Of a DNA stretch of 60,167 nt, positions 1,555 to 58,660 are shown piece after piece. Source of the stretch: a virus (taxonomy: Duplodnaviria > Caudoviricetes); the IMG/VR virus record IMGVR_UViG_3300017989_000015, positions 1 to 60,167 of that record. One strand, written 5' to 3'. The notes beneath the pieces were generated by a model. It saw nothing but the letters and a program-made list of their open reading frames with translations. It ran no database searches and was not told where the DNA came from. The position numbers were made by a program, and so were the translations under genes. Each line of letters starts with the position of its first letter. Position 1 is the first letter of the stretch.

Positions 1555-2466
1555 TTATGGTAGTCTAGGCAAAGGGCCTTTAGAACAAGGTTCCTTAGTG
1601 AGCTGAAGCGTACAGGCGCAAGCCCAGCCGTGGCATTCAAGATAGTCACATCCAGGCACCTGCGGCAGGATGCCTTTCTCGTGCCAGTAGCTCATGCGCT
1701 TGACCTTGCCGTGTAGCTTCAAACACGAGGCACAATGCTCAGCCTCGCCTAAAGTCCACACGGCCTTTTGGTCACGGCACCCGTAGGTCATGCCCAAATC
1801 GAACGCCTCGATCCACCGGGCCTCCCACATTCGTAAGCGTCCAGCGACCGCTCCCCACGTGCCGCCTTTGTCCCTGGTCCGTTCCAGAATCCACTCGCCG
1901 AATCCGACGATGTAGACATACTGAGAGGCAATAAAGTTCCGCATCTCGTTCCGCTCGACGTCGGTCATGTCCTCTTTGGTAATGCCGCACTTTGTCAGGC
2001 CCATCAGAAAAGCTCGGCGCAATCCGGTCTCCAATACGTCGTGCATCCCGTCGAAAAATTCCTTGATCGTAAACACGTCCTGCCAGAGACCTCTTGCTAC
2101 CTGGCGTAGGTCGCGCCCGAATCTCTCCCGAGCGCCCTGCTCAGACTCCTCCAGCGAATCAACGGATAGCAGGAGACATCCTTCTCCTCGCCCAGCATCA
2201 TACGCTTCTCTGAACAGCTTGCGCAGGTACTGCGCCCGCTCCTTGATCTTACCCTCCACCTCTGCCATTAGAAGCACTCGGCGCTCGATCTCCTTCTGGT
2301 TCAGCGTCCAGCGTTCTAGCTCCCAGCCAGTCATCTCGTCAAAGACGACCTGCCTGGTTCTCTGTCCGTTCACATAAGCGTCCCAGCAGAGATAGATTAC
2401 CTGACCAGCGGATAGCTCCCCGCCTTCCTCAAACTCCTTGATGACGACCTTAAATGCCTCATTCAT
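1555..2466 (-). CDS. Minor head / head morphogenesis protein (Mu gpF-like)
   Basis: Directly after the portal gene; C-terminal HCxxC...CHGWxCxC motif. Confidence 0.65.
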   Translation of the reverse strand: MNEAFKVVIKEFEEGGELSAGQVIYLCWDAYVNGQRTRQVVFDEMTGWELERWTLNQKEIERRVLLMAEVEGKIKERAQYLRKLFREAYDAGRGEGCLLLSVDSLEESEQGARERFGRDLRQVARGLWQDVFTIKEFFDGMHDVLETGLRRAFLMGLTKCGITKEDMTDVERNEMRNFIASQYVYIVGFGEWILERTRDKGGTWGAVAGRLRMWEARWIEAFDLGMTYGCRDQKAVWTLGEAEHCASCLKLHGKVKRMSYWHEKGILPQVPGCDYLECHGWACACTLQLTKEPCSKGPLPRLP

Positions 2467-4070
2467 CGAGCGCCCCCCACGTAGGTCAGCTCTACCAGCG
2501 CCCGTAGTGCCCGCAATTCATCCTCTAGCCCTTCTTCCGTCTCTTCCTCTTCCGGCGCCTCTTCTGATTCCTCTTCCTCGCCCTCTGGATACATCTGCTC
2601 AATTGTCGCTGTGATGATATCCGAGGTCAGGCCAAGCTGAGGCTGCTGCAGTGCGATTGTCGTCAGCACCTTCTGATCGATCATCCCCGTATCCCAGAAT
2701 GTGCCCAACGCCGCCACCATCACGTCAAAGTCCACATCGACCACCGAGCCAAGGCTGACGATGATCTCTCTGTTGTAGTCCTCTGGAATTTGACCCTGCT
2801 CGACTGCCGCATCCATCACGATTGTAAAGATGTCCTCGAACACAGACCGCCATAGGTTCTGATATTCACCCCACGCTCGAAGAGTAGGTCTCATGGCGAC
2901 CTCAGCGATGGCGCGATTCTGGGCCATGTCCGTCCTGCCTAACATGAAGGCAGGCGACTGTGTTCCCGTCGCCGCTTGTCCAATCAGCATCATACTGTCT
3001 TGTGCAGCATCACTCGCCCCAGTGGACATCGGCAGCCGCCTGGTATTGACGGCCTCATTCTGGACGCGGTAACTTCCTGCGCCTGGAGGCGGGTTATCCT
3101 CATAATTCTGGCCGACCGTATTCAAGCCGCTCTGTAGCTGGCTCTTCAGCATATCGACCATGCGCGGCCCACCCTTGACCTCATACTCCTCAATGACTGA
3201 GGCCACATTGCGAGCCACTGCTGCACGGTCAGTGGCAAACTGCTTGTATGCTTTGGCCCAGGGCTCAGAAGCGGTACAGAGCGGCCAGCCTCGGCCATCC
3301 ATCCCATAGAGGGAAACGTGAATGACCACCGGCACCAGCTCGGCATTCTGATCCGCTCTATCAGCACTAGGCGGCAACTTGACCTTGGCGAGGTTATCTG
3401 GGCCTGCTAGCCAGTCAGGATAGTAGCGGGTCTGCTGCTTCGGCCCGTTGCCTCGGTCTTCCATCCACTCGCGCTTGTAGTAGAGCGGCTGATCCTTGTC
3501 GCCTTCCATCGAGATAATCTCAGTAATCTCTTCTGTCTTGATCGTCCTAATCGAGCATTCGCCGTTGACCTTCTTCTTCCAGATGACCAGGAATAGCTCG
3601 CCATCTGTCAGGAGGCTGTTCGAGAGCTTGCGAATATGCCGGTCGCCCAGAATGCGCCGGTTCGCCTTGCTCGTCCAGAAGGCGTCCCATATCTCCTGCT
3701 CTTGCTCTTCCGCCTTCAGTGAGACCTCTTGCCCGAATCCATAGGCCGTCCACAGTTTGGTCATGGCCGAGATGAGCGGATCATACACTGCCCACCACCG
3801 TGCCCATTGAACGATCCTCAATCGATCCTTCTCATTCGGCCCAGCGGTACTCCCGAACGGGCTGACGATGACCTCATTCTGTTGGAGCCTCTGTAGCCAT
3901 GAGATCATACGCGGATCAAGCTCGCTCAACAGATGTTGTGACGTCATATGCCAGGGTGCTTTCCGATAGGCCGCTTCGTAGCCTGCTGCCTTGGCCCTTA
4001 GCGTCGTTACCTCCGATGCCGTCTGGACAACGGGACGCTTCTCTGCCCACCACTCACTCAGACGACTCAT
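2463..4070 (-). CDS. Portal protein
   Basis: 535 aa between terL and the minor head gene; LLTDGELFLV motif; acidic C-terminal tail. Confidence 0.8.
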   Translation of the reverse strand: MSRLSEWWAEKRPVVQTASEVTTLRAKAAGYEAAYRKAPWHMTSQHLLSELDPRMISWLQRLQQNEVIVSPFGSTAGPNEKDRLRIVQWARWWAVYDPLISAMTKLWTAYGFGQEVSLKAEEQEQEIWDAFWTSKANRRILGDRHIRKLSNSLLTDGELFLVIWKKKVNGECSIRTIKTEEITEIISMEGDKDQPLYYKREWMEDRGNGPKQQTRYYPDWLAGPDNLAKVKLPPSADRADQNAELVPVVIHVSLYGMDGRGWPLCTASEPWAKAYKQFATDRAAVARNVASVIEEYEVKGGPRMVDMLKSQLQSGLNTVGQNYEDNPPPGAGSYRVQNEAVNTRRLPMSTGASDAAQDSMMLIGQAATGTQSPAFMLGRTDMAQNRAIAEVAMRPTLRAWGEYQNLWRSVFEDIFTIVMDAAVEQGQIPEDYNREIIVSLGSVVDVDFDVMVAALGTFWDTGMIDQKVLTTIALQQPQLGLTSDIITATIEQMYPEGEEEESEEAPEEEETEEGLEDELRALRALVELTYVGGAR

Positions 4071-5019: not shown

Positions 5020-6026
5020 TGAATCTCTTCGTTCCCCGGCTCGATGAACATCTGCCCGACGTACTGAATGCCGCCGATCTCTTGCTGATATTCAGGCGAG
5101 ACCGGTGAATATCCTCTGGCCGTCCCTGCCTTGAGCAATGCCGCATTATAATTGAGAGGGATGATGTGCTGCTGCCCAATCTCAGCCATGACCTTACCGA
5201 TGTCCGCTGGCGAGCTTGCCAGCCAATCGACTATTCGCTTGGTCACAGATTCGTTATGGGCAAAGCTCGGCCAGGTCTCGTCCTGCCAGGTGAAAGGCGT
5301 TGCGGCTATAATGGCCTCGTCCTTATCCCACTTCTCTGATGTCTCCTGTAACTGGCGCACATACTCTGCCTCGTCGCCCTTGAGCTGGTAGCGCCAACCG
5401 CTTGTCTCTGGGTTGCCGTTCTCGTCGATGCCGGTCTCGCTGATGATGATGCGAGGCTCTGCGTATCCAGACTGAGCGAGAATCTCCAATACCCTGCGGT
5501 ATCTGCCCAGCCAGTAGGTATCCCAGTTCATCGTCTTATAGCCGTACTCGTGCAGGCCCAGGTAGTCGCCGATCCCTTGTCCTAGAATAGGCCAGAGGTT
5601 CAGTTCGGGATTGCCCACGCTGAAGCAATAGGAGAGCGTCTGGTGTCCTATCTGGTTCAGGTAGTACGTCCGCCACCTCTCGAATTGCGCAAGAGCATTG
5701 GCCTCTTCTTCTGTGACAATGTATGGCTCATTCGGCCCTTCGATGATCTGGCACCATCGGCACTTTGCTAGCTTCGGTTCGGCCATCGCCATCCACTCAT
5801 CCGCTCCCTGCTTGCCCTTGTAGATCAACTGCTTGTCAGGCTCGCCTTGCCCGAACCAGAGCCGCCCGATGTAGGTCATCCCTCCCAGCGGTGGCCCATC
5901 GTAGAGGTCGGGATGCATGATCTTTAGAAGGTTGACTCGTGACCGAACGATCTCCGTCTTGAGCCAGGGCTCGATGCCCGGCTTTTGGATATGGAACGTG
6001 AGCTTCGCCATCTTAATAGTCTCCAA
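4956..6026 (-). CDS. Putative clan GH-A glycoside hydrolase, candidate endolysin
   Basis: GPNEP (acid/base), LGLHEY and IIISETG (nucleophile) motifs of GH-A TIM barrels, plus a small C-terminal domain. Confidence 0.6.
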   Translation of the reverse strand: METIKMAKLTFHIQKPGIEPWLKTEIVRSRVNLLKIMHPDLYDGPPLGGMTYIGRLWFGQGEPDKQLIYKGKQGADEWMAMAEPKLAKCRWCQIIEGPNEPYIVTEEEANALAQFERWRTYYLNQIGHQTLSYCFSVGNPELNLWPILGQGIGDYLGLHEYGYKTMNWDTYWLGRYRRVLEILAQSGYAEPRIIISETGIDENGNPETSGWRYQLKGDEAEYVRQLQETSEKWDKDEAIIAATPFTWQDETWPSFAHNESVTKRIVDWLASSPADIGKVMAEIGQQHIIPLNYNAALLKAGTARGYSPVSPEYQQEIGGIQYVGQMFIEPGNEEIQWCAYCACGDWGNVIWTARAN

Positions 6027-7626
6027 TCCGATATTGGCTTTGACGCATATTCGACCTCGGCGCCGCGGCTTGTTCTGCGTTCAGTAGAATAGGCCCAAAC
6101 ACACCATGAAGGATGCTATCGCTCAGGTCAGTCGAGCGGCCTATGTCCGACCTTACGTCCTCCTTGGCAATTACGCTCTTCTGATTGCGAAGGTTGACGC
6201 CGGCACTCCTCATTGCTAGTAGCTCCATCTGTAACTCTTCGTTCTGTGGAATCCAGAGTCCGATGTCCCCTTTGCCGCTCAAAAAGTCGGCCAGCCCAAA
6301 CCAGGCGGCAGAGCGCCAATTCGTGAACCCAAATATGCCCGCTTCGTCCATAAGCTCTGTGCGATTCCCTGCCATAAAAGCAATCGCCGGACAGCCCTGC
6401 GTCCTCAACCAGTGCAGGATACCTGCGCCAATACCGATGCCGTCAACGCTCACCGTCGCCTGTGGATTCTTCCGCCACTGAGCCAGCACATAGGCGGCAA
6501 GCTCCATCGTGGCGATGTTCGGGTCTTCCGCGTGTTTGATCACTTCTAGGTCTCCAACGATATGCCCATCATAGATAAAGGCAATCGTCGAGCTATCATT
6601 CCCAGCCAGCCCGCCGCCCACGTCTATGCCTATGTGCGTCATCACACTAGCCGAGCCATGGTCCCGCGTCCGGCCTCGTGCCTCCCATTCTGCATGTAAC
6701 TCATTGCTCCTGGTAATCCAGCGCAGGGTCATCAGGCCATGAACGCTACCTTCTGAGAACTGGCCCTCGACGCGATTTTGAAACTCGGCACTCTCTTCGC
6801 CCCATTGCTCGCGCCTTTGATCGATCCATTCCTGAGCCACTCGCCCCGCCGCGACCGCCTCTTCCTTGGTAACGTGGCGTACCCACCAGTCGGTGTAACC
6901 TCTTTGCTGACTGTGGATCTGGTAGAATCTGCCCACTGGATCGCCTGGCGTACTGATTGCCAACACGAACGCTCGCCTATCCATCCCTACGCCAGCCTGA
7001 GAGAAGACTCCTTCCATCGCATCCCACATCGGATCCGGGATGGCCTTGGCCTCATCAAAGATGACCAGCACTTCCTTCGCGTGACCGCCCTCCATGCGGT
7101 GATGGTCCGAACTAGTCAACGCCGCTGCGTACCCATGCTTCAGGTTCAGCCGCTGATTCAGCAGTTCCTTGCCGATCCGGTAGGGCTGTGGGCGCGCAAT
7201 AATATCCCAGTTGAGATTCCTTGCTACCAGATGGATCTCCGGCCATAGAAAGAGGACGAGCTGCGCCCAGGCGGTGGCCGTCGTAAGCGCCTTCCAGTCG
7301 AGCCCGAGTGCGTCTCGTGTCAAGGCGAACCAATGAATAACCCCTGCTGCGATTCTCGTCTTGCCGAGTCCATGAATCCCTCTTGCTGATACGCGGCTCT
7401 CAGTAATCAGACTGCTGACGATCTCTAGCTGATAATCCGTCGCCCCTTGCTGGCTGTTCTCTTCAGGCCAGATAATACAATCGCGAAAGAAGCCCGCTGG
7501 GTCGTCGTAGTATTTCTCCCCAAACTCCTGGAAAGGCGTCTTGGGTTCCTGGAATGTGCCAGCCTCTTTGCGCCGGTCAATCTCGCGATCTATGAGCACT
7601 AGCTCCATCTCAGCTAGGGCATTCAT
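6013..7626 (-). CDS. terL: Terminase large subunit
   Basis: Walker A RGIHGLGKT, Walker B VLVIFDEA, ISTPG coupling motif, nuclease motifs IGIDVG and RSTDLSD. Confidence 0.92.
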   Translation of the reverse strand: MNALAEMELVLIDREIDRRKEAGTFQEPKTPFQEFGEKYYDDPAGFFRDCIIWPEENSQQGATDYQLEIVSSLITESRVSARGIHGLGKTRIAAGVIHWFALTRDALGLDWKALTTATAWAQLVLFLWPEIHLVARNLNWDIIARPQPYRIGKELLNQRLNLKHGYAAALTSSDHHRMEGGHAKEVLVIFDEAKAIPDPMWDAMEGVFSQAGVGMDRRAFVLAISTPGDPVGRFYQIHSQQRGYTDWWVRHVTKEEAVAAGRVAQEWIDQRREQWGEESAEFQNRVEGQFSEGSVHGLMTLRWITRSNELHAEWEARGRTRDHGSASVMTHIGIDVGGGLAGNDSSTIAFIYDGHIVGDLEVIKHAEDPNIATMELAAYVLAQWRKNPQATVSVDGIGIGAGILHWLRTQGCPAIAFMAGNRTELMDEAGIFGFTNWRSAAWFGLADFLSGKGDIGLWIPQNEELQMELLAMRSAGVNLRNQKSVIAKEDVRSDIGRSTDLSDSILHGVFGPILLNAEQAAAPRSNMRQSQYRIGDY

Positions 7627-8196: not shown

Positions 8197-8829
8197 TTAC
8201 AAAATGGGCTTATCCTTGACCAGATAGATCGTTGGTAGGCTAACGATGGTTACGACAGCCTTCCAGAGGATTTGTCCTGCCACGATACTCATGGCCGCCA
8301 AGAAAGGTATGGGTTCTCCTCCTAGGATCGGAGGGAGCAGAACAAATGCCAGAACCCCGAATAGAAACGAATCAAGCGGTAGACTGATCGCGTTTGATAA
8401 CAGTACGGCGACCCATTGCGGCCCTCGATCCTTGAACACATGGTAGACCTCAGTGTCTACCAATTGGCTAATCACCTCAGAGATGATGCTTCCTGCCGTG
8501 ACTGCCGGGACGATCGCGAAGACCTGTCCCCATTGCTCCCCGAGGGCAAAGAAAGGAGGGAAAGGCATATTCGCTACCCATGCCAGATAGCCTGCTTGGA
8601 CCACATTGAAAATACCGCACATGATGATCACTGCGCGCGCCCATTCTTTCCCCAGTCTCTTGTGAAGCAAGTCTCGTAGCGTGAAAGTCAGGGCAAAGAC
8701 GAAGGTGCCCGCAGGGAAGGTGATCCCTCGGTAGAACACGAGCTTCGTCGCTCCGATGTCTGCAATAGCCTGACAGATCACATAGCCCCCCACTAGGACT
8801 ATGATGGTCCAGATAGTCGCTTTCTTCAT
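8197..8829 (-). CDS. yhhQ: Queuosine-precursor (preQ0/preQ1) transporter, YhhQ/VUT family
   Basis: About 6 TM helices; PAGTFVFALTFTLRD, SQLVDTEVY and SNAISLPLDS family motifs. Confidence 0.88.
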   Translation of the reverse strand: MKKATIWTIIVLVGGYVICQAIADIGATKLVFYRGITFPAGTFVFALTFTLRDLLHKRLGKEWARAVIIMCGIFNVVQAGYLAWVANMPFPPFFALGEQWGQVFAIVPAVTAGSIISEVISQLVDTEVYHVFKDRGPQWVAVLLSNAISLPLDSFLFGVLAFVLLPPILGGEPIPFLAAMSIVAGQILWKAVVTIVSLPTIYLVKDKPIL

Positions 8830-9161
8830 GTCATACCTCTTTCGATAGTTGCGCTCACCGGCGCATGTACGGTTGTCCGTGCCCGTGCAGTCACGCGCAA
8901 CGGAATGTCACCAAGCGCCTTCGACAACACATCGAAAACGCGACGGGCCATATCTTCTACGGTCATGGCTTCGGTAGCTAGCCCGTTGAGCCAATCCTCG
9001 AAAGACTCGAACTCTAACAGCGTGTCCCCTGGTCGGTAGGTAATATCTAGGACTCCCCAGAAGGGCCGTTTTCCTATAGAGCAGAGTGTCGAGAACGGCG
9101 GCGTATACTCGATCAAATCTACGCAACTATCGTTGGCGATCGTCTTTATATTGTCTGACAT
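8826..9161 (-). CDS. QueF/QueF-like T-fold protein (atypical)
   Basis: FSTLCSIGKRP...ITYRP...LLEFES...TVED pattern of unimodular QueF. It lacks the E(S/L)K(S/A)hK NADPH motif. Likely start MSDNIK at 9161. Confidence 0.7.
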   Translation of the reverse strand: MSDNIKTIANDSCVDLIEYTPPFSTLCSIGKRPFWGVLDITYRPGDTLLEFESFEDWLNGLATEAMTVEDMARRVFDVLSKALGDIPLRVTARARTTVHAPVSATIERGMT

Positions 9162-9961
9162 ATGAATCCTATCTCCTTTGCTGACTTTGGAAATAATGGG
9201 CTGAGCATAGGCCCTAGCCACTTGGAGGGAATGAAGGTCGAGCATCGTTCGTATAATGTGTCCAGGCCGACCTTTTCTAGCTCTTCGCGCAAAACCTTCG
9301 CGTTATGCAAAAGCCCGTATTCGGCCTTGATCTCGAATCCCGCCTCAGTGAGTCCGGTAACCAATTCGCTGCGCTTCCATTCGTAGACGTGGGCAGCATA
9401 CTGGGTATCATAACCGTCTTGGCCTTCGGGCGTATTGGGGCAAGTAAGGTATAACATAGCCCCGTCCTTGCTAACCGCACGACATTCTCTCAGAGAGGCC
9501 ATGCCCAGATCACGGTGCATATGCTCGATGGAACTGGTATAGACAAGGAGGTCAAATCGTTGGGGGAGCAGACTAACAGCCATCTGTGCTACGTTTGACT
9601 CTATGAATCTCACCGGGAATGGGTAGTAATCATCCTTTATGGGCTTGCCATCCGTCACTCGCTTCTCTAGGAACTTGGCGTTCTTTGGCGCAATGTCTAC
9701 GCCCGTATAACTCCCCAAGTCTTTTCGTTGGTAGCGCAAGAGAGGGAGCAAGAGGCCGCGCCCACAGCAGACATCGAGCAAAGCCGTGCCCTTCTTGGCC
9801 CAACGGATAATCTGCTCATGCTGTATATAATTCATCACATCGAGGGCTGAGAAGAAGCCGTCCCCGAATTGGCGATAGAAGTTGCGCATCTGGTAAGTCG
9901 TTGCCAATATCTCGCGCACGTCCATTCCTGGCTCTACTTTATAGACAATCTTTTTACTCAC
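9146..9961 (-). CDS. Class I SAM-dependent methyltransferase
   Basis: LLDVCCGRG, YTGVDI, FDLLV...IEHM and LYLTCPN motifs. Confidence 0.85.
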   Translation of the reverse strand: MSKKIVYKVEPGMDVREILATTYQMRNFYRQFGDGFFSALDVMNYIQHEQIIRWAKKGTALLDVCCGRGLLLPLLRYQRKDLGSYTGVDIAPKNAKFLEKRVTDGKPIKDDYYPFPVRFIESNVAQMAVSLLPQRFDLLVYTSSIEHMHRDLGMASLRECRAVSKDGAMLYLTCPNTPEGQDGYDTQYAAHVYEWKRSELVTGLTEAGFEIKAEYGLLHNAKVLREELEKVGLDTLYERCSTFIPSKWLGPMLSPLFPKSAKEIGFICQTI

Positions 9962-11231
9962 CTTGTAACTCTCCTATCGCCAAGGCTACATTGGGAGGCT
10001 TGTCAGTGGTATCTACGAGGAATAACTTCATTCCTCTATCCGCATCACTCCAATTGATCCCGTTTGAGGTGTCGGCTAAATGCAGGCGTGGTCCCACGCC
10101 TGCCTGTGCCAGGGCCGCGACGCTCATATTACCTCCACGAGAACTTCCTGTACCATCTCCATCCGCCCCCGTGACTAGATGAGCCTTCAATCCCGAAGGC
10201 TCATCTTCGCGTCCTGGAATCCTTACCTCGCCATGTCGTTTTCTCAACCATCGTTCTGCTAGCATATAAGATAATGCCGAGATTGCGCAGATCTTCGCCC
10301 TTTCGTTGCGTTCTCGGTCTATGAAATCCATTGGTTCGAATCCTAACGATCGAATGAGGGCCGAATGCTTTACTCCACTTTTGACGTCCCCCAGCCCTAC
10401 CTGTACAAATCGCCCTCGCTTCTCATCGAATAAGGGCACCCTCCCGTATCGAAATCCTGAGCCCCAAGAGGACGAGTCTACCGAGTACCAGGGAAAGCTC
10501 TTCATCACGTTCCAGGAGGTAAGCCCAAAGCCATGAAACACGCTCTCTCCCTTGGCAATCTGATAGCACTTGGTGATCCAAGCCATGATCTCATCACGTC
10601 GGGCCTGCATCCCTGCAACGCCCAAAGCAATATAGGGATACCGTTCTATATAATGCTCCAACCATAACCATTCTTCGAGAACATGAAAGCAGGGCAAGGG
10701 CGTCGTGCCCATATCTTCCATGATTTGCTGGTTTCGCCAGGTTGCTTCTGCGTCTTTGATGACGTCCAGATTCGCATAGCTCGAGAATAAGTGCTTCCAT
10801 CGCTTGATCCATTCTACATACTTGGGAATTGTTATCGTGACGCCTTGTGTCATAGCAGAGAAAGCCCCCGAATCAGCGAATACGTCTGGATAGGGCTCTG
10901 TAAAATACTTGGCGAATAATTGGTCCAGATCGGTGTCCTTGTAGTACCAGTAAGATAGCAAGATACGAAGGCGTAGTCCATTTCGTACAGCACCACGGCT
11001 TGCCCAGCCGTGGTGCTGTGGATCGCTATCTGCCAAATGGATCTTGGCCATTTTTTCAAATCCTTCCCATTGCTGAGTCCCGCTTACGAAGCGAGACTCA
11101 GGATTCTTGCTCTCCCCGTGCCCTTCGGGCCAGCTTGCCAAATATATCCCCGCGTGAGCCCTTAGCGAATTCACTAGTCGCCCTGCCCCCCCCCAGGCCT
11201 CAGGATAGCCCAGTGTCAAATAGAGAAACAT
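9954..11231 (-). CDS. dpdA: DpdA, TGT-family DNA 7-deazaguanine transglycosylase
   Basis: FADSGAFS, YANLDVI, PCFH, YIALG, HGFGLT and PWYSVDSSSW motifs; adjacent to yhhQ and the QueF-like gene. Likely start at 11231 (GGAGG). Confidence 0.85.
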   Translation of the reverse strand: MFLYLTLGYPEAWGGAGRLVNSLRAHAGIYLASWPEGHGESKNPESRFVSGTQQWEGFEKMAKIHLADSDPQHHGWASRGAVRNGLRLRILLSYWYYKDTDLDQLFAKYFTEPYPDVFADSGAFSAMTQGVTITIPKYVEWIKRWKHLFSSYANLDVIKDAEATWRNQQIMEDMGTTPLPCFHVLEEWLWLEHYIERYPYIALGVAGMQARRDEIMAWITKCYQIAKGESVFHGFGLTSWNVMKSFPWYSVDSSSWGSGFRYGRVPLFDEKRGRFVQVGLGDVKSGVKHSALIRSLGFEPMDFIDRERNERAKICAISALSYMLAERWLRKRHGEVRIPGREDEPSGLKAHLVTGADGDGTGSSRGGNMSVAALAQAGVGPRLHLADTSNGINWSDADRGMKLFLVDTTDKPPNVALAIGELQGE

Positions 11232-11829
11232 CGACCGCCTCCAGAAGCGTCTGTACCTTGGCCGCCCCGTCCACGCCCGGCGCCTTCTCCATAAGAGAAT
11301 AGAAATAATCCAAGGTGTCCGGAGAGACCTGGATGCGGATAAAGGGCCAGAAGTCGCGCTCCTGGGGCTCTCCATACTGTGTTGCTAGATCATCCAAGTC
11401 AGGCGCCGCGGAAGCGGCCTTATCCAAGATGCCCAATAGTTCCTCCTCATAGAACATTCCAGAAAGATCAAGCTTTGCATCGAGGTCGGCTACAATCTGC
11501 TGGGCATCCCAGGAAGCCAGCTCCGCCGTGCGATTGTCGAAGTAACTCAATATCTGTTTCTGTTCATCGGTCAGGCCCGTCCGCCGTACTGCGATGATCT
11601 CATCCCCGTCTGCCTCGATCACGCGCACCTTCTCGATCCCTGCCTCAGCCGCCGCGTCTATAACGCCATTCCCAGCTAGGATGACGTCGTTCTCATCAAT
11701 AACGATTGACCTGGCTGCACCCACTTTGCGTAGTGAGTCCGAGATCATACCGATATTTCTGGGGCTGTGAATTCGTGGGTTCGTTGGATCCGGCTTGAGA
11801 TCACCGATATGGTCTACTTGTTTTGGCAT
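11200..11829 (-). CDS. ParB/Srx-like N-terminal domain protein
   Basis: LKPDPTNPRIH...SIVIDENDVILAGNG...DNRTAELASWD; typical partner of phage DNA-modification genes. Confidence 0.85.
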   Translation of the reverse strand: MPKQVDHIGDLKPDPTNPRIHSPRNIGMISDSLRKVGAARSIVIDENDVILAGNGVIDAAAEAGIEKVRVIEADGDEIIAVRRTGLTDEQKQILSYFDNRTAELASWDAQQIVADLDAKLDLSGMFYEEELLGILDKAASAAPDLDDLATQYGEPQERDFWPFIRIQVSPDTLDYFYSLMEKAPGVDGAAKVQTLLEAVDVSLFDTGLS

Positions 11830-12438: not shown

Positions 12439-12786
12439 TCACGCCCCCTTCGGCTTGATCGACATACCCAATGCCAACTCAGATCGCACAACCAGCCGAT
12501 CAAGATCATCCCCTACCGGCTCGCCAGTGACAATGTGGCCAATGGCAAGGCTCAGCAGCGGCTCTATCTCTGACAGGCGGCTACTCAGCTCCTCTATCTC
12601 GGCGTCATAGGCGCGAGCATTCCAGCCGTCCGCTGCCGCCTCCTTTGATCGCCATGGCATCGTTATTACTGGACACTCACTGCAAGCTACTCGCCATCCC
12701 GTCGTGACCTGGCCTGGTTCCCAGGCCGAGTAGTACGCCTTCTTCCCACAAAACGGACATTCTCTCAGCTCTTCTAGCGCATTCAT
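12439..12786 (-). CDS. Lar-family restriction alleviation protein
   Basis: ELRECPFCG...VACSEC...AADGWNAR signature. Confidence 0.75.
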   Translation of the reverse strand: MNALEELRECPFCGKKAYYSAWEPGQVTTGWRVACSECPVITMPWRSKEAAADGWNARAYDAEIEELSSRLSEIEPLLSLAIGHIVTGEPVGDDLDRLVVRSELALGMSIKPKGA

Positions 12787-13611: not shown

Positions 13612-14318
13612 TTCTCGCTCCTCGCTTGGCTTGCCGCCAAGCGCTTGGCTTGCGCCTCAGCCACCATCTTTTGGTACGGCGTCCGCGTACCGGTGGCCAC
13701 TGGGCCAGCCTCTGTCGTCGTTACGACATACGGCCTACCAGGTATTTGCCGAACATTGTCATGGCCAGCAGATTTACGCCACGCCTCCCGCGTCGGCGTC
13801 ACGCAGCCGTCGCGCGTTAGCGCGCGATTCAATGAGTGGGAATTGCCATAGTAGAACGACGTGATGGGCGATCCGTCCGGGCCCATCACGGAAAACGCGT
13901 TGTTCACGTCGTTCCACCGGCGAATGCGCCCGTCGGCGCATCGGGCCTCGTGTACGTGCGGGTCACTGGTGGATGCCGTATCCGCCCAAGCCCCCACCGC
14001 ATCCTGGCCGTGCTTGACTACAGCGTGACTGTCTGGGCTCAATGTCTCGGGGCGTTGTACCACGGCGGTCGCTTGAGTTGCCATTCGCAAGCGGGCGCGC
14101 GCGTTCATCTGAGCGTATGGGCTTGTGAGTCCCTTCGCCGCGAGTAGGCCCGTGCCGATTGTCGTGATTGCGCCACCCCCACCACTGCCACCAGCAGGCC
14201 CTTGCCACTCCATGGTGGCCACACCCTGCGCGTGACTGGCGGGAGCTAGTATTAACAGGAGAAACACCACCAAGATCATCGCTCCAATTGTTAGTACGCC
14301 CCAAATGATCCTACTCAT
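13608..14318 (-). CDS. Secreted protein with a possible BECR/colicin-D-like RNase domain
   Basis: Signal peptide ending ASHA; HAVVKHG...WNDVNNAFSVMGPDGSPITSF. Confidence 0.45.
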   Translation of the reverse strand: MSRIIWGVLTIGAMILVVFLLLILAPASHAQGVATMEWQGPAGGSGGGGAITTIGTGLLAAKGLTSPYAQMNARARLRMATQATAVVQRPETLSPDSHAVVKHGQDAVGAWADTASTSDPHVHEARCADGRIRRWNDVNNAFSVMGPDGSPITSFYYGNSHSLNRALTRDGCVTPTREAWRKSAGHDNVRQIPGRPYVVTTTEAGPVATGTRTPYQKMVAEAQAKRLAASQARSEK

Positions 14319-15207
14319 TTTGCTCCTCCTCTGTTAGATAATCGAACAGCCGCTTCAACTGCCATGCCTTTGCCGCGTCCCATGCCGCGTCCCTTGCCGC
14401 GTCCCTTGCCGCGTCCCTTGCCGCGTCCCTTGCCGCGTCCCATGCCGCGTCCCTTGCCGCGGCCCTTGCCACGCCCCTTGCCGCGGCCCTTGCCGCGTCC
14501 CTTGCCGCGTCCCTTGCCGCGGCCCATTCCACGGCCCTTGCCGCGTCCCTTGCCGCGGCCCTTGCGGCGTCCCATGCCGCGTCCCTTGCCGCGGCCCTTG
14601 CCGCGGCCCTTGCCGCGTCCCTTGCCGCGTCCCTTGCCGCGTCCCTTGCCGCGGCCCTTGCGGCGTCCCATACGGCGGCAAGCTCTTCTTGTGTCGCATG
14701 TCCATTGGCGTAGCGCCGCGCTACCTCTATTGCTTTCCGTGGCCGGGCATCATCTGGATATGCCCGCTCGAATATCGGTAACACACGCTCGGCACAGTCT
14801 GAGGCGAATAGCCGCCACTTGCGCGCGGACATGCCACCGACCTTGCGCGGCAACCGGCCTTGATGCCCGTTTACTTTGTCACCGTACTCTTCTACGTCGC
14901 CCTTAAACTCGAGCTCATAGAGAACCCCCTCCTCACAGCAGTACGCCAGGAGGGACTCAATTTCTTCAAGGCTGCCGTGATACCCTTTTTCGCACTCGAC
15001 TAAATCATCGACGGAGTCAGTCCACTCGCCAGGTTCGTACTCTACCCAGCCGCCGTCGCCGTCGCAGCGATCACACCAGGCGCTGTCCTCTGTTCCTCCC
15101 TGCCCGTGGCAAAGCGGGCACTCCACCCATCGCTCTGTCGGCAAAGGCCATGCGAACTTTGCGTACGGCGACTTCCCGTCTGGCGATAACCATTTATAGT
15201 ACGTCAC
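14311..15207 (-). CDS. Phage protein with an Imm5-like domain and AARD/AAWD repeats
   Basis: LFASDCAERVLPIFE...DARPRKAIEVARRYA motif, CxxCxGxG zinc finger, Ala-rich repeats. Confidence 0.7.
   Translation of the reverse strand: MTYYKWLSPDGKSPYAKFAWPLPTERWVECPLCHGQGGTEDSAWCDRCDGDGGWVEYEPGEWTDSVDDLVECEKGYHGSLEEIESLLAYCCEEGVLYELEFKGDVEEYGDKVNGHQGRLPRKVGGMSARKWRLFASDCAERVLPIFERAYPDDARPRKAIEVARRYANGHATQEELAAVWDAARAAARDAARDAARDAARAAARAAARDAAWDAARAAARDAARAVEWAAARDAARDAARAAARGVARAAARDAAWDAARDAARDAARDAARDAAWDAAKAWQLKRLFDYLTEEEQNE
14365..14670. repeat. 12-bp coding tandem repeat, about 25 units (GCGGCAAGGGAC on minus)
   Basis: Directly visible; encodes AARD/AAWD/AARA. Confidence 0.95.
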
Positions 15208-21075: not shown

Positions 21076-21512
21076 GAGGCAATTTCATAGCCAAGATGAA
21101 CCAGGCGCTCTTGGCTCAACTCGCCGTCAGTGTGCCGCTCGCCCTTGGTTAGCTCATAGGCGCAATAGTCGCAAAGTACCTCAGGATGTACATTCTTAGA
21201 TTCTGGGAATCGGCCATTGTCCCGAGGTATCCCGCACCGCTCGCATCGCAACGCCGGGTCCACCCTTGAATTGCGCAGTAAGCCCTCCTTCTTTCGGTCG
21301 CTGCGACGCCGATAGTCGAACGCCTCGAACGCCTCTCGATCCTCCCGACTCATGTGGGCGAGGGCATAGGCGCGCCCGTCCTTCGATGCCGCCGACCGAC
21401 TACGACCCTGCCTTTCACCGATCTCCACATACGAAAGCCCCTCTTCATAATGCAGCCGCCACGCCTCATACCGCAGATCGAGTCGTTCGCGTGTCCAGTA
21501 TGTCATCGTCAA
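21072..21512 (-). CDS. HTH (sigma70 region 4-like) plus zinc-finger protein, last gene of the type IV-like operon
   Basis: GLSYVEIGERQGRSRSAASK; CERC...CDYC; ATGA overlap with the csf3 stop. Confidence 0.65.
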   Translation of the reverse strand: MTMTYWTRERLDLRYEAWRLHYEEGLSYVEIGERQGRSRSAASKDGRAYALAHMSREDREAFEAFDYRRRSDRKKEGLLRNSRVDPALRCERCGIPRDNGRFPESKNVHPEVLCDYCAYELTKGERHTDGELSQERLVHLGYEIAS

Positions 21513-22267
21513 ACCGCCTCATACCAATCCACCTCAACCTGCGTTCCCACTCTCCATCCAGGCGCGAACAGCCCAGGCAGCCAATAGGGCGGCGTCCATC
21601 CCACGAGAGACGGATACCCCTGGGGCTGGTCTGCGTTCAATAACGAGGCCACGCAGCCCTCTGGGATTGTGCGCGCCAGGGCGAAGTTCTCAACCAATCG
21701 CCATTCCCGCTCATCCGGCTCGATCAGCCAGTGATCCACCGCCCCAAACCCTCTCGCCCGCTCTTTGCCCACCGCCCGCAGATACTCCAATAGCCGCCCA
21801 ACTTCAATCGCATTCCCCACACATCGAATTGTCCACCGATCCGCGATCTCTGTGGGAACGGGCACGCGCCGCTCCATGAATCGCCCATCAGATGGCGAGA
21901 TATTGAATCTCCCTTTCCGCCCTTTGACAAATCTGCCCGACGGATGCTTCTTGTGACGATAACTGACATCCTTGGTGCTCGCGCCTTCTGGATGCGCTGG
22001 GGTTGTGGCCCACAGAGGGAACCCTTCCGCGTCTCTCCACAAACACTGTAACGGCGTAGGCAATAAATATCCTTCCTCGCTCTGGGGGACGCCTTGCCCC
22101 AGCGTTAATTCATGTACCATGCACCAGGCCAGCACGCCGTCCAATAACAGCGGGTCATATCCCGCTATCTGCGCGCCCTGTCGCAATTTCAGCGTGATCT
22201 TTAGCGGCTGCTTTTCCATCGCCTCGTATTCCTGCCACCGTTTGTAGAATCCTGGTAATACAATCAC
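21509..22267 (-). CDS. csf3: Type IV CRISPR-associated Csf3 (Cas5-like RAMP)
   Basis: LLLDGVLAW, LWATTP, CVGNAIEVGRLL, G-rich loop VGKERARGFGAV and C-terminal PPYW. GTG start at 22267 overlaps the methyltransferase stop. Confidence 0.82.
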   Translation of the reverse strand: MIVLPGFYKRWQEYEAMEKQPLKITLKLRQGAQIAGYDPLLLDGVLAWCMVHELTLGQGVPQSEEGYLLPTPLQCLWRDAEGFPLWATTPAHPEGASTKDVSYRHKKHPSGRFVKGRKGRFNISPSDGRFMERRVPVPTEIADRWTIRCVGNAIEVGRLLEYLRAVGKERARGFGAVDHWLIEPDEREWRLVENFALARTIPEGCVASLLNADQPQGYPSLVGWTPPYWLPGLFAPGWRVGTQVEVDWYEAV

Positions 22268-22989
22268 AGCGTCTCCACTTCTGCGCCCATCCGCGTCATA
22301 CGATCCAATATATGCGCCACATAGCGTGGCTCTTTCTCGATCCCAATGCACGATCTTCCCAGTTGGTCGCAGGCCGCCAGCGTGGTACCGCTCCCTGCAA
22401 ACGGGTCAACGACGATCAGCTCCGGCGCAAAGCAGTCGCCAATCAACAGCCGAATCCAGTCCAATGGCTTCTCATGGCGATGCGCCCCCCTCTTGTGCAA
22501 TGCCGAGATCGACTCGCGATAAATCTCCGCAAGACGATTGCCGCGTGCCTTTGTGCCACGCAACTCTCGCTCCGCATAGCGCCGATCCGCTACCCCCGCA
22601 AAATCGCTCCCCTCTTTGCCATAAAAAGCGCCTATGGGATTAAACTGCAACACATCGCCATACCACAGCGCCAACTTGACCTGCATCAGTGGACGGCCCT
22701 CAGCATAGTGGCCACTCATACAGTCCCACACGAACAGCCATGTAGGCGCGCCGAATCGCTCAATCGTTCGGTACATGTACTGTGGATTGGTAAATGCCAG
22801 CACCGACGCATGGCCGCTCGCGTCCAGCCCCTGCGGAATGTGCCACGGCGGATCATACACCAGCGCAGATGGGCGAGTGGGAATCACCCCACTCGCCATC
22901 GCCTCGACGCAATCGCCGCAAATCAAGAGATGACGCCCGCGCCCGCGAATGCGCCACGTCTTTCCCGGCTTGACATGCCATCTATCCAT
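22264..22989 (-). CDS. DNA amino-methyltransferase (N6-A/N4-C, beta class)
   Basis: LICGDC, VYDPPW (motif IV), HEKPLDW, VVDPFAGSGTT (motif I) and GIEKEPRY. Confidence 0.88.
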   Translation of the reverse strand: MDRWHVKPGKTWRIRGRGRHLLICGDCVEAMASGVIPTRPSALVYDPPWHIPQGLDASGHASVLAFTNPQYMYRTIERFGAPTWLFVWDCMSGHYAEGRPLMQVKLALWYGDVLQFNPIGAFYGKEGSDFAGVADRRYAERELRGTKARGNRLAEIYRESISALHKRGAHRHEKPLDWIRLLIGDCFAPELIVVDPFAGSGTTLAACDQLGRSCIGIEKEPRYVAHILDRMTRMGAEVETL

Positions 22990-24407
22990 CAGAACCTCAG
23001 CTTGCCCGTACCCAACGTCCCGTCCACCAATCCCGCAACCAGCTCGTCGCGGTTGGCATCCAAATAGCTCTCATATTCGGTCTCGAACGCCTTGGCCTCC
23101 ACGTGGCGCGTCATCCACAGCGCCTCGTATCGACCATACCCTCTAGCGCCCTGGCCGCCTAATGTAGGCAACTGCTCTAGCGCGTATTGGGTCGCAGCCA
23201 GTAGCGCCCCATGCGTTCTCGCGTGCGTTTGGGGCAACACGTCCAGTTCGACATATACCTGCGCTCCTGTTTTGAGCGCCTCAAATCCCGTAATCATCTG
23301 CCCCAGACCCTGCTCCGTCGCTCTGCGCGTCAGGGTCACGTCGTCTAGCTGGTCAAACGCGCTCACCCCCGCCAGCGCCAATCCGTCTGGCAAAGCGGTG
23401 GCGTTCTCAGCGCATACCAGCCAGGCGCTCACCTGCAACCGGCTGTCTTGCAGAAAGAACGAGCCTACACACCCGCCCAGCAGATCGAGCAGCGGGTATC
23501 GATCCTTGATCTCGGCGGCCAACGCGAACGCATTAGACGGGGCTGCTCCCTCCAAATTGCCGCCATTGACAAACAGCGCCTCTACCATTGCCGGCAATTC
23601 CCCCTCGCCTGGCTTGGCCGCCAACAAACCCAGTCGATCCACCATGTGCATCCATCCGGGCTCTCGCACCAATGAATGGCGAATTGCGTTGCTGCTGATC
23701 GCCGGCACCTCGATCACCCTGGCAGAGCAATCGCTAGGGTCATCGTTCGCCCCAAACTCCATTTCGTGCATTGGCGTCACAAGCGCCATCTTTCCCACCG
23801 CCTGAGCGTACTCTTCGCTGGCTAGCTTTCGAATCTCTGCCCATCGCCGCGCAATAGGGATCACGCTATGCGATTGCGAAATCAAAACACGCAAGGCAGC
23901 CATCTGCGTTCCGCTAGGCACGGACAGCAAATCGAGCAGCTCCAGGTCGTGCTTCCCGCTATGCAACCCCACGTTGAGTAGTTTGCACAACCGGCTCCAG
24001 TAGGCGCGTAGCGTCTGGCTGGGAATCGCCGCCGTGCGCATCCTCGTCTCCAGGTAGCGATAGCGCTCCATCCCTGAGAACAGCCCCTCGCCGTCCTGGC
24101 CGCCGTGCATCTCGATGAACAATCGTGTTAGCGCGACTGCCACAAACTCCGGGAACGGCATGTCCTCAAATATCCCCACCAAATCAGCAGGGACAAGATG
24201 CGCCTGGGCAATGACCGCCATTTGATCACTGCTCGCAGTGGCTTTACTGCCCTCGCTGCGTATGATCTGCCCCTGCCGATTGAACAGCGATTGATTCGAC
24301 CCGTCCGCCGTCGCTGGGTCGTGGTGGCTGACCGGTTGCTGAAACGTCAACAGCAAGCTGTATCTCGCGCGCCTCGCCTCTACACGTAATACGTCACTCA
24401 TGATCAT
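22989..24407 (-). CDS. csf2: Type IV Csf2 (Cas7-like RAMP) with a large Cas11-like insertion
   Basis: LTFQQPVSHH...NQSLFNRQ, VPAISSNAIRH, LFVNGG, PLLDLLGG, QMITGFEAL and G-rich loop LGGQGARGYG. Confidence 0.82.
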   Translation of the reverse strand: MIMSDVLRVEARRARYSLLLTFQQPVSHHDPATADGSNQSLFNRQGQIIRSEGSKATASSDQMAVIAQAHLVPADLVGIFEDMPFPEFVAVALTRLFIEMHGGQDGEGLFSGMERYRYLETRMRTAAIPSQTLRAYWSRLCKLLNVGLHSGKHDLELLDLLSVPSGTQMAALRVLISQSHSVIPIARRWAEIRKLASEEYAQAVGKMALVTPMHEMEFGANDDPSDCSARVIEVPAISSNAIRHSLVREPGWMHMVDRLGLLAAKPGEGELPAMVEALFVNGGNLEGAAPSNAFALAAEIKDRYPLLDLLGGCVGSFFLQDSRLQVSAWLVCAENATALPDGLALAGVSAFDQLDDVTLTRRATEQGLGQMITGFEALKTGAQVYVELDVLPQTHARTHGALLAATQYALEQLPTLGGQGARGYGRYEALWMTRHVEAKAFETEYESYLDANRDELVAGLVDGTLGTGKLRF

Positions 24408-25153
24408 TCTCCCTTTCGCTGCGCAATCAGCAGCGCTACATCAAACCACGGCAATTGCCGTCCCGACACCAACGAATCATCTAGCCTCCGCGTTTCCGCC
24501 AGCCCCACCTCCGTTGCGATTCGGTAGTCGCTCATCAGGCTCTCCGAAATCGCTCTCTTTGTAAACCCCATCTCGTAAATGATCTCAATCGCCTGCAACC
24601 AAATCAATAGCGACGGCCAATCGCAATACACCGTTTGCGCCGCGCCGTTGGCGTACAAATACACGGGCGTCCTGCTTCCCAGCGGCCCCGTGGTCGCCAT
24701 CGGCCAGAGCCGCTTTTTCGGATCCGTTGTCAACAACATCGCCATCGTTTGCCCCGCCCGAGCAGGCCAAATCTCGCGCACGAGGTCGGACCAGCACGGC
24801 CTGGCTTGTTTCGCCGCCGATTCGCGGCTGATCAGCGGGTAATAATATGTCCCGTCCGCGAAAACCAGACATTGCCGTGACGTTGGCATCCCCTCACGCG
24901 GGTTGTTATTGCGAAAACAGATACCCTCGTTTTCGCTAATCCACCCGCCCGGGTTCCCGTGAAACTGCGTGAGAGGGTCTGATGTGGATTTGGTCGCAAA
25001 GTCAGCCGCGTGATACCCGTATGATAGCGACTGCCCGCTAATACAAGAGCGCGCCCCTTCTGGCGCATCTATCGGTCGCTCCTCTAATGGCCCCAGACCG
25101 AGGCCCTTGACCAACAAGTCTGCTACGGTTTCCATTCGCGTGTAATCCGCCAT
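24404..25153 (-). CDS. csf1: Type IV Csf1 (Cas8-like large subunit)
   Basis: 249 aa directly upstream of csf2; degenerate N-terminal zinc finger (SCISG); KKRLWP and GFTKRAI motifs. Confidence 0.68.
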   Translation of the reverse strand: MADYTRMETVADLLVKGLGLGPLEERPIDAPEGARSCISGQSLSYGYHAADFATKSTSDPLTQFHGNPGGWISENEGICFRNNNPREGMPTSRQCLVFADGTYYYPLISRESAAKQARPCWSDLVREIWPARAGQTMAMLLTTDPKKRLWPMATTGPLGSRTPVYLYANGAAQTVYCDWPSLLIWLQAIEIIYEMGFTKRAISESLMSDYRIATEVGLAETRRLDDSLVSGRQLPWFDVALLIAQRKGE

Positions 25154-58031: not shown

Positions 58032-58660
58032 AGTTTAGTCCATCCATAGACGCCCGGCTCCCAGCTATTCGCCCCAGAAGCATCGCCAGCGGTGCACTCC
58101 CACGTCGAGCCGTTATGCGTTACCCTGTCGCCTATGTGGTACACATCATGCGCCCCAGTCGGCTGCACCCAAGGCTGCGGCTCTTCGCTTGTCTGTACCA
58201 CCTTCCACAATGCAGGGGCCGCCGAAGGGACAAATGCCGCGTCGGTCACGTGCGCCTGAACGCATTCGTACATTTTGCCATCGTAGATGCGCCGCATACC
58301 AACCGCCACCTTCTCCGCTGGTATCCACTCCAGGTTATCCGCGTCCTCTCGATACGTCACAAACAGGTTCAGCGTCTCATCAGGTGGATAGATCGTGCGC
58401 CAGTGTGATTGCCTCACCATTACCGCCGTGTCGTTCCAGGCGTAGACCGCGCCCGCCTCTAGCCAACCTGTGCTCGGTAGCTCTGGCAGTTCGGCCACGT
58501 GCTCGGCCAAAGCCCCGACGTAGGCGTTCTCGTCCTCCGCCGTTACGACGGTCAATCCCGTCGCCAAATAGTCGCCACTTCGCAGGACGCCCGACGTTAC
58601 GATCTCGCCGTCAGCAAATATCGCGTATCGCTTACCGCGCTCATCTGTTGTTATCCTCAT
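58028..58660 (-). CDS. Carbohydrate-binding (CBM5/12-like) protein
   Basis: YDGKMYECVQAH...PALW; WVQPTGAHDVYHIGDRVTHNGSTW...WEPGVYGW. Confidence 0.75.
   Translation of the reverse strand: MRITTDERGKRYAIFADGEIVTSGVLRSGDYLATGLTVVTAEDENAYVGALAEHVAELPELPSTGWLEAGAVYAWNDTAVMVRQSHWRTIYPPDETLNLFVTYREDADNLEWIPAEKVAVGMRRIYDGKMYECVQAHVTDAAFVPSAAPALWKVVQTSEEPQPWVQPTGAHDVYHIGDRVTHNGSTWECTAGDASGANSWEPGVYGWTKL

Follow-up and report, generated by a model that had tools for sequence, protein, structure and literature searches.

What separates the two conserved parts of Csf2 in the virus genome IMGVR_UViG_3300017989_000015, and why does this genome lack a gene for the small subunit that should accompany it? 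The window, meaning the whole stretch of DNA analysed here, is recorded as a complete virus genome; it is 60,167 bp long and has direct terminal repeats, and its open reading frame (ORF) at 22989..24407 on the minus strand encodes a Csf2/Cas7 protein of 472 amino acids (aa). A preliminary description, made from the sequence, had proposed that a segment inside this protein is the missing small subunit, Cas11, nested in Cas7. We find the proposal supported by free-standing homologs of the segment, by a fold match and by a census of related loci. Our reading, to which we give a probability of about 0.88, is that the protein is a Csf2 of type IV-B lineage that carries its cognate Cas11 in the tip of its N-terminal hairpin, that the nested domain replaces the cas11 gene and has a single origin, and that the fused protein would form filaments.

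The protein divides into five segments, of which the middle one is the domain in question.

24258..24407, minus strand: N-terminal segment of Csf2, residues 1-50, comprising strand 1, the PVSHH...N..LFNR loop and the strand that opens the hairpin
24186..24257, minus strand: linker 1, residues 51-74, 24% mean pairwise identity
23808..24185, minus strand: Cas11 (small subunit) domain, residues 75-200, identified by free-standing homologs, PADLOC models and the fold match
23721..23807, minus strand: linker 2, residues 201-229, 21% mean pairwise identity, with a low predicted local distance difference test score (pLDDT) near residues 221-230
22989..23720, minus strand: C-terminal core of Csf2 (Cas7), residues 230-472 and the stop codon, identified by PADLOC typeIV_Cas7 models

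The landmarks of the preliminary description are all present. The motif PVSHH...NQSLFNRQ lies at residues 25-45, RYLETRMRTAA..SQTLRAYWSRLCKLL starts at residue 115, VPAISSNAIRH lies at residues 234-244, and the coordinates assigned to the insert, 23718..24257, correspond exactly to residues 51-230. The helical separation of about 180 aa that had been noted between the Csf2 motifs is borne out by an alignment gap and by an all-helical model. Specifically, when four fused proteins are aligned with six insert-less Csf2 relatives (279-294 aa), the N-termini share the pattern P-[IV]-[AS]-H-[GH]...N..LF.R, a single clean gap opens opposite residues ~51-229, and homology restarts at VPAIS.NA.RH. In addition, a hidden Markov model (HMM) of the N-terminal part, coreN, matches the short Csf2 proteins at 1e-5 to 1e-4. 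The AlphaFold2 model of the full protein has a pLDDT of 87.6 and a predicted template modelling score (pTM) of 0.82. In this model residues 60-203 are all-helical and are flanked by strands at 44-50 and 229-235, with another strand at 14-22; the position of the helical segment between the two flanking strands puts the domain at the tip of a β-hairpin.

Conservation follows the same boundaries. Across 54 family members, residues 75-200 have a mean pairwise identity of 44%, well above both linkers, while the two Csf2 parts reach 54% and 52%; the difference between the core of the insert and its linkers argues that the insert is not chance sequence. Linker 1 lies beyond the stretch that can be aligned to free-standing Cas11. 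The equivalents of R44 and P235 are 164-197 residues apart in these proteins (median 189), and G106, G108, R122, W137 and W189 are invariant in the family alignment.

The C-terminal part is recognisably a type IV Cas7. Four PADLOC typeIV_Cas7 models match residues ~230-460 at 2e-26 to 1.4e-13, the best of them over residues 231-458. A Foldseek search with the full model returned 7xg1_F (6.7e-7) and 7jhy_a (4.9e-5), and the top ~25 chains are Cas7 chains of types IV-A and IV-B. For the 472-aa protein, Pfam gave no match, and PHROGs gave an unnamed family over residues 231-343 and nothing else.

The insert is homologous to the free-standing Cas11 proteins of type IV systems and has the same fold. 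An exhaustive phmmer search over 1.84 billion proteins recovered five proteins of 141-176 aa, each starting with Met (P0208, P0212, P0214, P0215 and P0218; E 2.2e-15 to 6.0e-13), whose alignments to the query are confined to residues ~73-229 and show 37-42% identity. PADLOC type IV Cas11 models recognise four of them (1.5e-7, 7.3e-7, 5e-5 and 3.7e-3) but not P0218. The motif DG.GLFSG..RY..LE.R...AA......W, followed later by AR, is common to the insert and the free-standing proteins. PADLOC typeIV_Cas11 models also match the 472-aa protein directly, over residues 93-174 at 1.1e-4 and over residues 118-173 at 5.9e-3. Furthermore, the family profile searched against all sequences in the PDB returned, at E < 0.5, the Csf2 of 7JHY (3.4e-6), a Cas7c (3.6e-5), the Cas11 of 7JHY (0.013; positions 114-169 of the profile aligned to residues 69-125 of the chain) and nothing else. 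[quoted passage not shown] JS623 (PMC7937560).

The structural comparison leads to the same protein. We modelled the insert alone, from an alignment made up of the free-standing proteins (pLDDT 81.5). In the Foldseek search that the preliminary description had suggested, the top match of this model is 7jhy_g, the IV-B Cas11 (probability 0.99, E 0.088, 117 columns, target TM-score 0.52). In a VIA alignment against 48,161 representative chains, which does not depend on Foldseek, the best match is 7jhy_h, with a Z of 11.5 and a root-mean-square deviation of 2.9 Å over 118 of 143 residues; the second-best chain has a Z of 5.5. The helical-bundle topology of type IV Cas11 is described as distinct from that of the small subunits of types I and III (PMC7937560).

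If the nested domain is the small subunit of this system, loci with the insert and loci without it should differ in their gene content. We fetched 58 loci, which with the window make 59 sources, and searched every ORF of at least 40 aa with HMMs built from the insert, from the free-standing Cas11s and from the parts of Csf2. The scan of viral contigs with the free-standing Cas11 alignment gave two loci, both fused, and the split loci were reached through the insert-less Csf2 alignment; the scan of genome contigs used a 10-row alignment as query. The sources sort as follows.

38 sources (34 distinct contigs): fused gene in one ORF; a separate cas11-like ORF in 0 of 38
1 source (L002): fused gene split by a frameshift; the 325-aa piece is the only cas11-like ORF
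15 sources: csf2 without an insert, its start included in the contig; a separate cas11-like ORF in 15 of 15
5 sources (L016, L048, L049, L052 and L053): csf2 cut by the contig end, so that its state cannot be told

Among the fused sources, L018 repeats L001, L046 repeats L019, L051 repeats L023, and L054 repeats the window.

The fusion thus replaces the separate cas11 gene. The gene-context check proposed at the outset gave a partition in which every insert-less csf2 whose start the contig includes has a cas11 ORF directly upstream and none of the 38 fused genes is accompanied by a separate one; neither of the two outcomes named beforehand as fatal to the idea, an insert without a Cas11-like fold or an insert together with a separate cas11, was observed. 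In the split loci the stop of the small ORF abuts or overlaps the start of csf2, and 14 of the 15 small ORFs are full length (119-199 aa). The insert HMM matches 13 of these at 1e-20 to 1e-35, and the distant cas11 of L024 matches the free-Cas11 HMM alone (3e-6). The fifteenth split locus, L007, has a 67-aa piece of cas11 that lies 123 nucleotides (nt) from the contig end. For the window, a genome-wide ORF scan confirmed the earlier remark that no separate small-subunit gene is present: across the 60,167-bp genome, the HMMs found no separate cas11-like ORF of at least 40 aa.

The split loci have the order csf1, cas11, csf2, csf3, cysH-like, the textbook IV-B order (PMC8175902). In the fused loci csf1 abuts csf2, and most of them have csf1 and csf2::cas11 followed by csf3 and the cysH-like gene in either order; csf1 and csf3 are kept in all complete fused loci. 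Two fused loci show further features. In L002 (1494-2919 (+)), the frameshift cuts csf2::cas11 into ORFs of 325 aa and 173 aa, through pseudogenisation or a sequencing error. L001 encodes a Cas6 (5605-6228 (+), PF09559 4.3e-43) between csf3 and the cysH-like gene, with no clear array in the 10 kb examined; some fused systems may still process a CRISPR RNA (crRNA).

The fusion probably arose once, as judged from two trees, of the Csf2 core and of the Cas11 domain, each of which separates fused from split forms by one branch. The maximum-likelihood tree of the C-terminal Csf2 core has 75 rows, comprising 43 of 169 fused proteins (every fourth), seven fused loci and 25 rows labelled 'unfused'; L004, L016 and L018, with incomplete or duplicate cores, are omitted. 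With the distant split locus L024 as root, all 50 fused rows form one clade, with a support of 95 in the Shimodaira–Hasegawa-like approximate likelihood-ratio test (SH-aLRT). Two rows labelled 'unfused', P0165 and P0183, are placed inside this clade, and we rejected them as reversions: both are N-terminally truncated proteins whose first residues correspond to positions 185 and 178 of the query, within the insert. In the tree of the Cas11 domain (96 rows, with the duplicates L018, L046, L051 and L054 omitted), the 18 free Cas11s are all grouped to one side of a branch whose support is 96, and one change suffices once the frameshifted L002 is counted as fused. Both trees are quick reconstructions with many unresolved forks.

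The genes around csf2::cas11 place the system within the IV-B lineage. The window has the order csf1, csf2::cas11, DNA methylase, csf3.

24404..25153, minus strand: csf1-like gene (small Cas8-like large subunit), 249 aa, assigned by homology to the gene at the same position in related loci
22264..22989, minus strand: N6/N4 DNA methyltransferase, 241 aa (PF01555 9.1e-18; PADLOC MTase_II 1e-15)
21509..22351, minus strand: csf3 (Cas5), maximal ORF of 280 aa (PADLOC Csf3_0_IV over residues 47-260, 6.6e-29)

The 472-aa gene therefore stands in a Csf2-type operon, with a csf1-like gene upstream and csf3 downstream, and all four members of the IV-B effector set (csf1, cas11, csf2 and csf3) are found in the window, cas11 as a domain. 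As is typical of IV-B, array and Cas6 are missing: two repeat searches found no CRISPR-like array in the whole genome, and the genome holds no homolog of the L001 Cas6; Cas1, Cas2 and DinG were not searched with profiles of their own.

The csf1-like protein has no direct profile match, Pfam included. It matches its L001 counterpart at 1e-18 (phmmer), its family holds the same position in all related loci, and PADLOC Csf1_0_IV matches 11 of the 15 family members that were aligned, the best at 2e-12. The csf1 stop and the csf2::cas11 start overlap by 4 nt, which leaves no space for an intervening gene. Most Csf1-like proteins of the family have two CxxC pairs near the N-terminus. Those of the window, L026, L027, L034 and L037 retain one Cys of the first pair and have lost the second, so that the presumed zinc finger is degenerate in this subclade.

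The methyltransferase start and the csf2 stop overlap by 1 nt, and the gene occupies the slot where relatives have a cysH-like gene. That gene is present in most relatives and is Pfam-confirmed in L025, L001 and L003. In the closest relative, L025, whose Csf2 is 72% identical, it lies between csf2 and csf3 (2427-3239, PF01507 1.2e-16). It looks as if the methylase of the window has replaced this ancillary gene. A PF01507 search, with positive controls in 14 of 14 genomes, found no gene of the phosphoadenosine-phosphosulfate (PAPS) reductase type anywhere in the complete genome. The maximal csf3 ORF shares 88 nt with the methylase gene, its profile matches start at residue 47, and csf3 homologs in related loci are mostly 231-282 aa; translation probably begins at the ATG at 22219 (236 aa), so that the annotated start would be too far upstream. 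NCBIfam cas5_csf3 matches the protein at 2.9e-11, under the curated cut-off.

How might the fused protein work? In the 7JHY structure as described, six Csf2 subunits form a helical backbone on RNA and five Cas11 subunits form the belly, each sitting on a Csf2-Csf2 interface (PMC7937560); the account of a IV-C complex gives seven Cas7 and six Cas11 (PMC13676074). By analogy, fused protomers, together with Csf1 and Csf3, would polymerise on RNA as the Csf2 of 7JHY does, and each would place the Cas11 domain that it carries in the belly of the filament, tethered by linkers of 24 and 29 residues. Major and minor filaments would then come from one gene, with one gene fewer in the cassette. The fixed 1:1 ratio of Cas7 to Cas11 suggested by the preliminary description holds because Cas11 is covalently joined to Csf2. 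The insertion site is the tip of the hairpin that follows the loop aligned with the catalytic loop of Csf2 and Csm3. In type III complexes this loop points towards the target strand and the filament of small subunits, which makes the site geometrically plausible.

The residue at the putative catalytic position differs from that of 7JHY. In a weak profile alignment, Asn38 (about 24294-24296) aligns with the conserved Asp42 of the 7JHY Csf2, which is discussed as a putative catalytic residue in the published description (PMC7937560). Asn38 is invariant in fused and split proteins of the 10-row alignment and is conserved in at least 90% of the 54-row family alignment. With Asn in the position of Asp42, cleavage of target RNA by the Csf2 of the window seems unlikely. 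Here as elsewhere we infer the function of IV-B, and the likeliest role would be that of an RNA-binding complex used in conflict between phage and host or between mobile elements. A bolder idea, which we think improbable but worth stating, is that the cassette supplies both filaments from a one-gene block and acts not in interference but as a CRISPR-derived counter-defence, coating or sequestering RNA in an open-ended, guide-independent manner. No free Cas11 would then limit or end assembly, no array or Cas6 would define a guide, and the sequestered RNAs might be host crRNAs or the phage's own transcripts.

Several observations weigh against a nested, filament-forming Cas11 of IV-B lineage. 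The direct matches between the insert and Cas11 (1.1e-4, 5.9e-3 and 0.013) are weak, and the strong link is transitive, through the free-standing homologs. The Foldseek E value against 7jhy_g is no better than 0.088, and the Z of 11.5 lies under the caution line of about 13 that the tool sets for helical bundles. The VIA match nonetheless is to the protein predicted beforehand, scores twofold above every other chain and spans the whole domain. By composition, residues 75-200 contain 14 K+R and 15 D+E, a net charge of -1; a contiguous positive surface is described for the Cas11 minor filament (PMC7937560). NCBIfam TIGR03115 (Csf2) reaches 18.7 bits with a cut-off of 130, and the NCBIfam models for Csf2 and Csf3 alike stay far under their curated cut-offs. 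The cysH-like gene, a marker of IV-B, is missing from the window. Finally, this reading gives no account of how an upstream gene entered csf2 after codon ~50; one possible route would be a duplication of the 5′ end of csf2 followed by deletions.

Some of these points would fit a Cas11 domain that has been kept but repurposed in cis and no longer builds a minor filament, which we consider doubtful. Such a domain might cover or block the face with which its own Csf2 binds the target, or it might dock some other partner, and the complex would then operate unlike the split IV-B complexes, for example as a pure RNA-coating or RNA-sequestering filament, details that we hold to be just as tentative. 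The high pTM (0.82) hints at a defined arrangement of the domain against its own core, both linkers are short, the net charge of the domain is -1, and the phage has no array, Cas6 or cysH-like gene; moreover, IV-B complexes are reported in the published description to bind heterogeneous RNA and also to make long filaments (PMC7937560). Against repurposing, the fused clade keeps the motifs of free Cas11 (DG.GLFSG..RY..LE.R...AA, W and AR), which argues that the ancestral interface is retained, and all its complete loci keep csf1 and csf3. A helical elaboration of Cas7 that is specific to this lineage and has no kinship with Cas11, for instance a lid or fingers domain, would account for the weakness of the direct profile matches, and insertions in the loops of the RNA recognition motif (RRM) fold are frequent in Cas7 proteins. 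We regard it as very improbable and have rejected it, contradicted as it is by free-standing homologs, gene context and fold search: the insert is ~40% identical to genes in the cas11 slot that themselves match Cas11 models, and the best of 48,161 chains is the IV-B Cas11.

The direction of the change also has to be weighed. The trees are unrooted in principle and a single separating branch gives no direction, so the nested form might be ancestral and the separate cas11 and csf2 of the sister clade products of gene fission. We judge this very unlikely. The distant outgroup locus L024 is split, as are the Mycobacterium IV-B complex and the IV-C systems in the published descriptions (PMC7937560, PMC13676074), and fission would have to yield an intact upstream gene and a csf2 resealed at the hairpin, which takes more steps than one insertion. 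The case for fusion rather than fission rests on this outgroup together with the IV-B and IV-C systems solved so far, which are split. An artefact of assembly or frameshifting that joined neighbouring genes into one long ORF, for which the split ORFs of L002 could be cited, is hardly credible and was discarded: the order is Csf2N-Cas11-Csf2C, which read-through from cas11 into csf2 cannot produce, and the same architecture recurs in 38 sources, in 169 of 219 fetched proteins and, as an identical copy, on L054, an independent contig of a metagenome-assembled genome (MAG).

The fusion is conserved in a large clade of uncultivated, phage-like contigs. A word-index search gave 78 clusters, 75 of which cover at least 91% of the query, and the exhaustive phmmer search gave 314 proteins at E <= 0.001 and 109 clusters (50% identity) at E <= 1e-30. 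From both searches 219 proteins were fetched, and 169 of them have the full insert together with the full Csf2 core. The relatives come from IMG/VR contigs that reach 86 kb and from five MAG contigs titled Anaerolineales, Chloroflexota (two), Bellilinea and Microbacterium. Searched by tblastn, the 472-aa protein had no match in 50,697 GenBank phage records and none in 72,556 PLSDB plasmids.

The remainder of the window is that of a tailed-phage gene set, in which the minus strand holds nearly all long ORFs and which includes a portal protein, a large terminase, a head protease/major head protein, a tape measure protein, a DnaB-like helicase and a replication initiator. Rfam gave no match in the window. 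A probable 7-deazaguanine DNA-modification module lies at 8197-11375 (-).

9954-11375, minus strand: DpdA-like homolog of queuine tRNA-ribosyltransferase (PHROG 1.5e-46)
9146-9961, minus strand: class I methyltransferase, part of the probable 7-deazaguanine module
8826-9245, minus strand: QueF-like protein, a weak match under the Pfam cut-off
8197-8829, minus strand: YhhQ/Vut_1 transporter (1.7e-28)

A Lar-like restriction-alleviation protein, slightly under the cut-off, is encoded at 12439-12786. Two tandem repeats were found within ORFs. At 14370-14669, a 12-nt unit (TTGCCGCGTCCC on the plus strand) is repeated 25 times and encodes a four-residue protein repeat in the ORF 14311-15207 (-), which also has an Imm5-like domain (PF21805 2.7e-13). 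At 58978-59415, a 78-nt unit occurs in 5.6 tandem copies that are 85% alike; it corresponds to a 26-residue repeat in the 376-aa product of the ORF 58657-59787 (-), for which PHROGs gave no match. We rejected the 78-nt repeat as a CRISPR array because the entire units are alike and lie within an ORF.

Of the class 1 subtypes, type IV-B is the one understood least, and a 2026 account still describes both its full architecture and its function as unclear (PMC13676074). A natural insertion offers an independent evolutionary constraint on the placement of Cas11 relative to Csf2, since the hairpin tip after the catalytic-loop equivalent must be reachable from both Cas11 termini. It also indicates that a 1:1 ratio of Csf2 to Cas11 is tolerated. 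A filament reduced to one gene would help reconstitution, structural work and the engineering of compact RNA-binding scaffolds. The fusion, moreover, defines a sizeable phage-borne clade.

Among known systems, the closest solved one is 7JHY. As far as the published description goes (PMC7937560), the likeness to the window lies in the fold and profile of Csf2, in the fold of Cas11 and in a set of csf1, cas11, csf2 and csf3 without a CRISPR array. The differences are that Cas11 of 7JHY is a separate protein of 162 aa, present at five copies per six Csf2, whereas in the window it is a domain of Csf2 at 1:1, and that the Mycobacterium system resides on a megaplasmid whereas the window is a phage without the cysH-like gene. 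The sequence identity to the 7JHY chains is about 18-22%. Nearer in sequence are the split IV-B cassettes of the phage contigs L003-L015 and L017, the sister clade of the fused forms, which have csf1 and csf3 of the same families and likewise lie on viral contigs. Their Csf2 cores are 30-36% identical to that of the window and their Cas11s are 21-36% identical to the insert, but cas11 is free (130-199 aa) and Csf2, at 279-284 aa, has a tight hairpin at the position of the insert.

Cas11 is covalently joined to Cas7 also in the III-E Cas7-11 (gRAMP), the III-I Cas7-11i and the fused subunits of III-D (PMC12669027). In III-E and III-I, however, three or four Cas7 and one Cas11 are arranged in tandem as a complete effector of fixed length (PMC12669027), whereas in the window one Cas11 is nested in one Cas7 core of 472 aa, and this unit must still polymerise. 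The fusion of the window has an origin independent of III-E and III-I, within type IV, and represents a third independent route of Cas7-Cas11 fusion beside those two, by nesting and not by tandem joining. That type IV effector genes can fuse is documented by the csf1-csf3 fusion of IV-E, which involves other partners (PMC7038947, PMC8175902), and nuclease insertions are reported among type IV fusions (PMC10910872). The Fuxivirus IV-B of Bathyarchaeia viruses is likewise an IV-B cassette in a virus, but is described with separate Cas11 and Cas7 genes and a mini-array (PMC10848311). Full-text literature searches, with supplementary tables outside their scope, found no description of a Cas11 nested in the Csf2 of a type IV system. 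What is new is thus an effector of IV-B lineage with a domain-inserted small subunit, which in this phage is also without the cysH-like gene.

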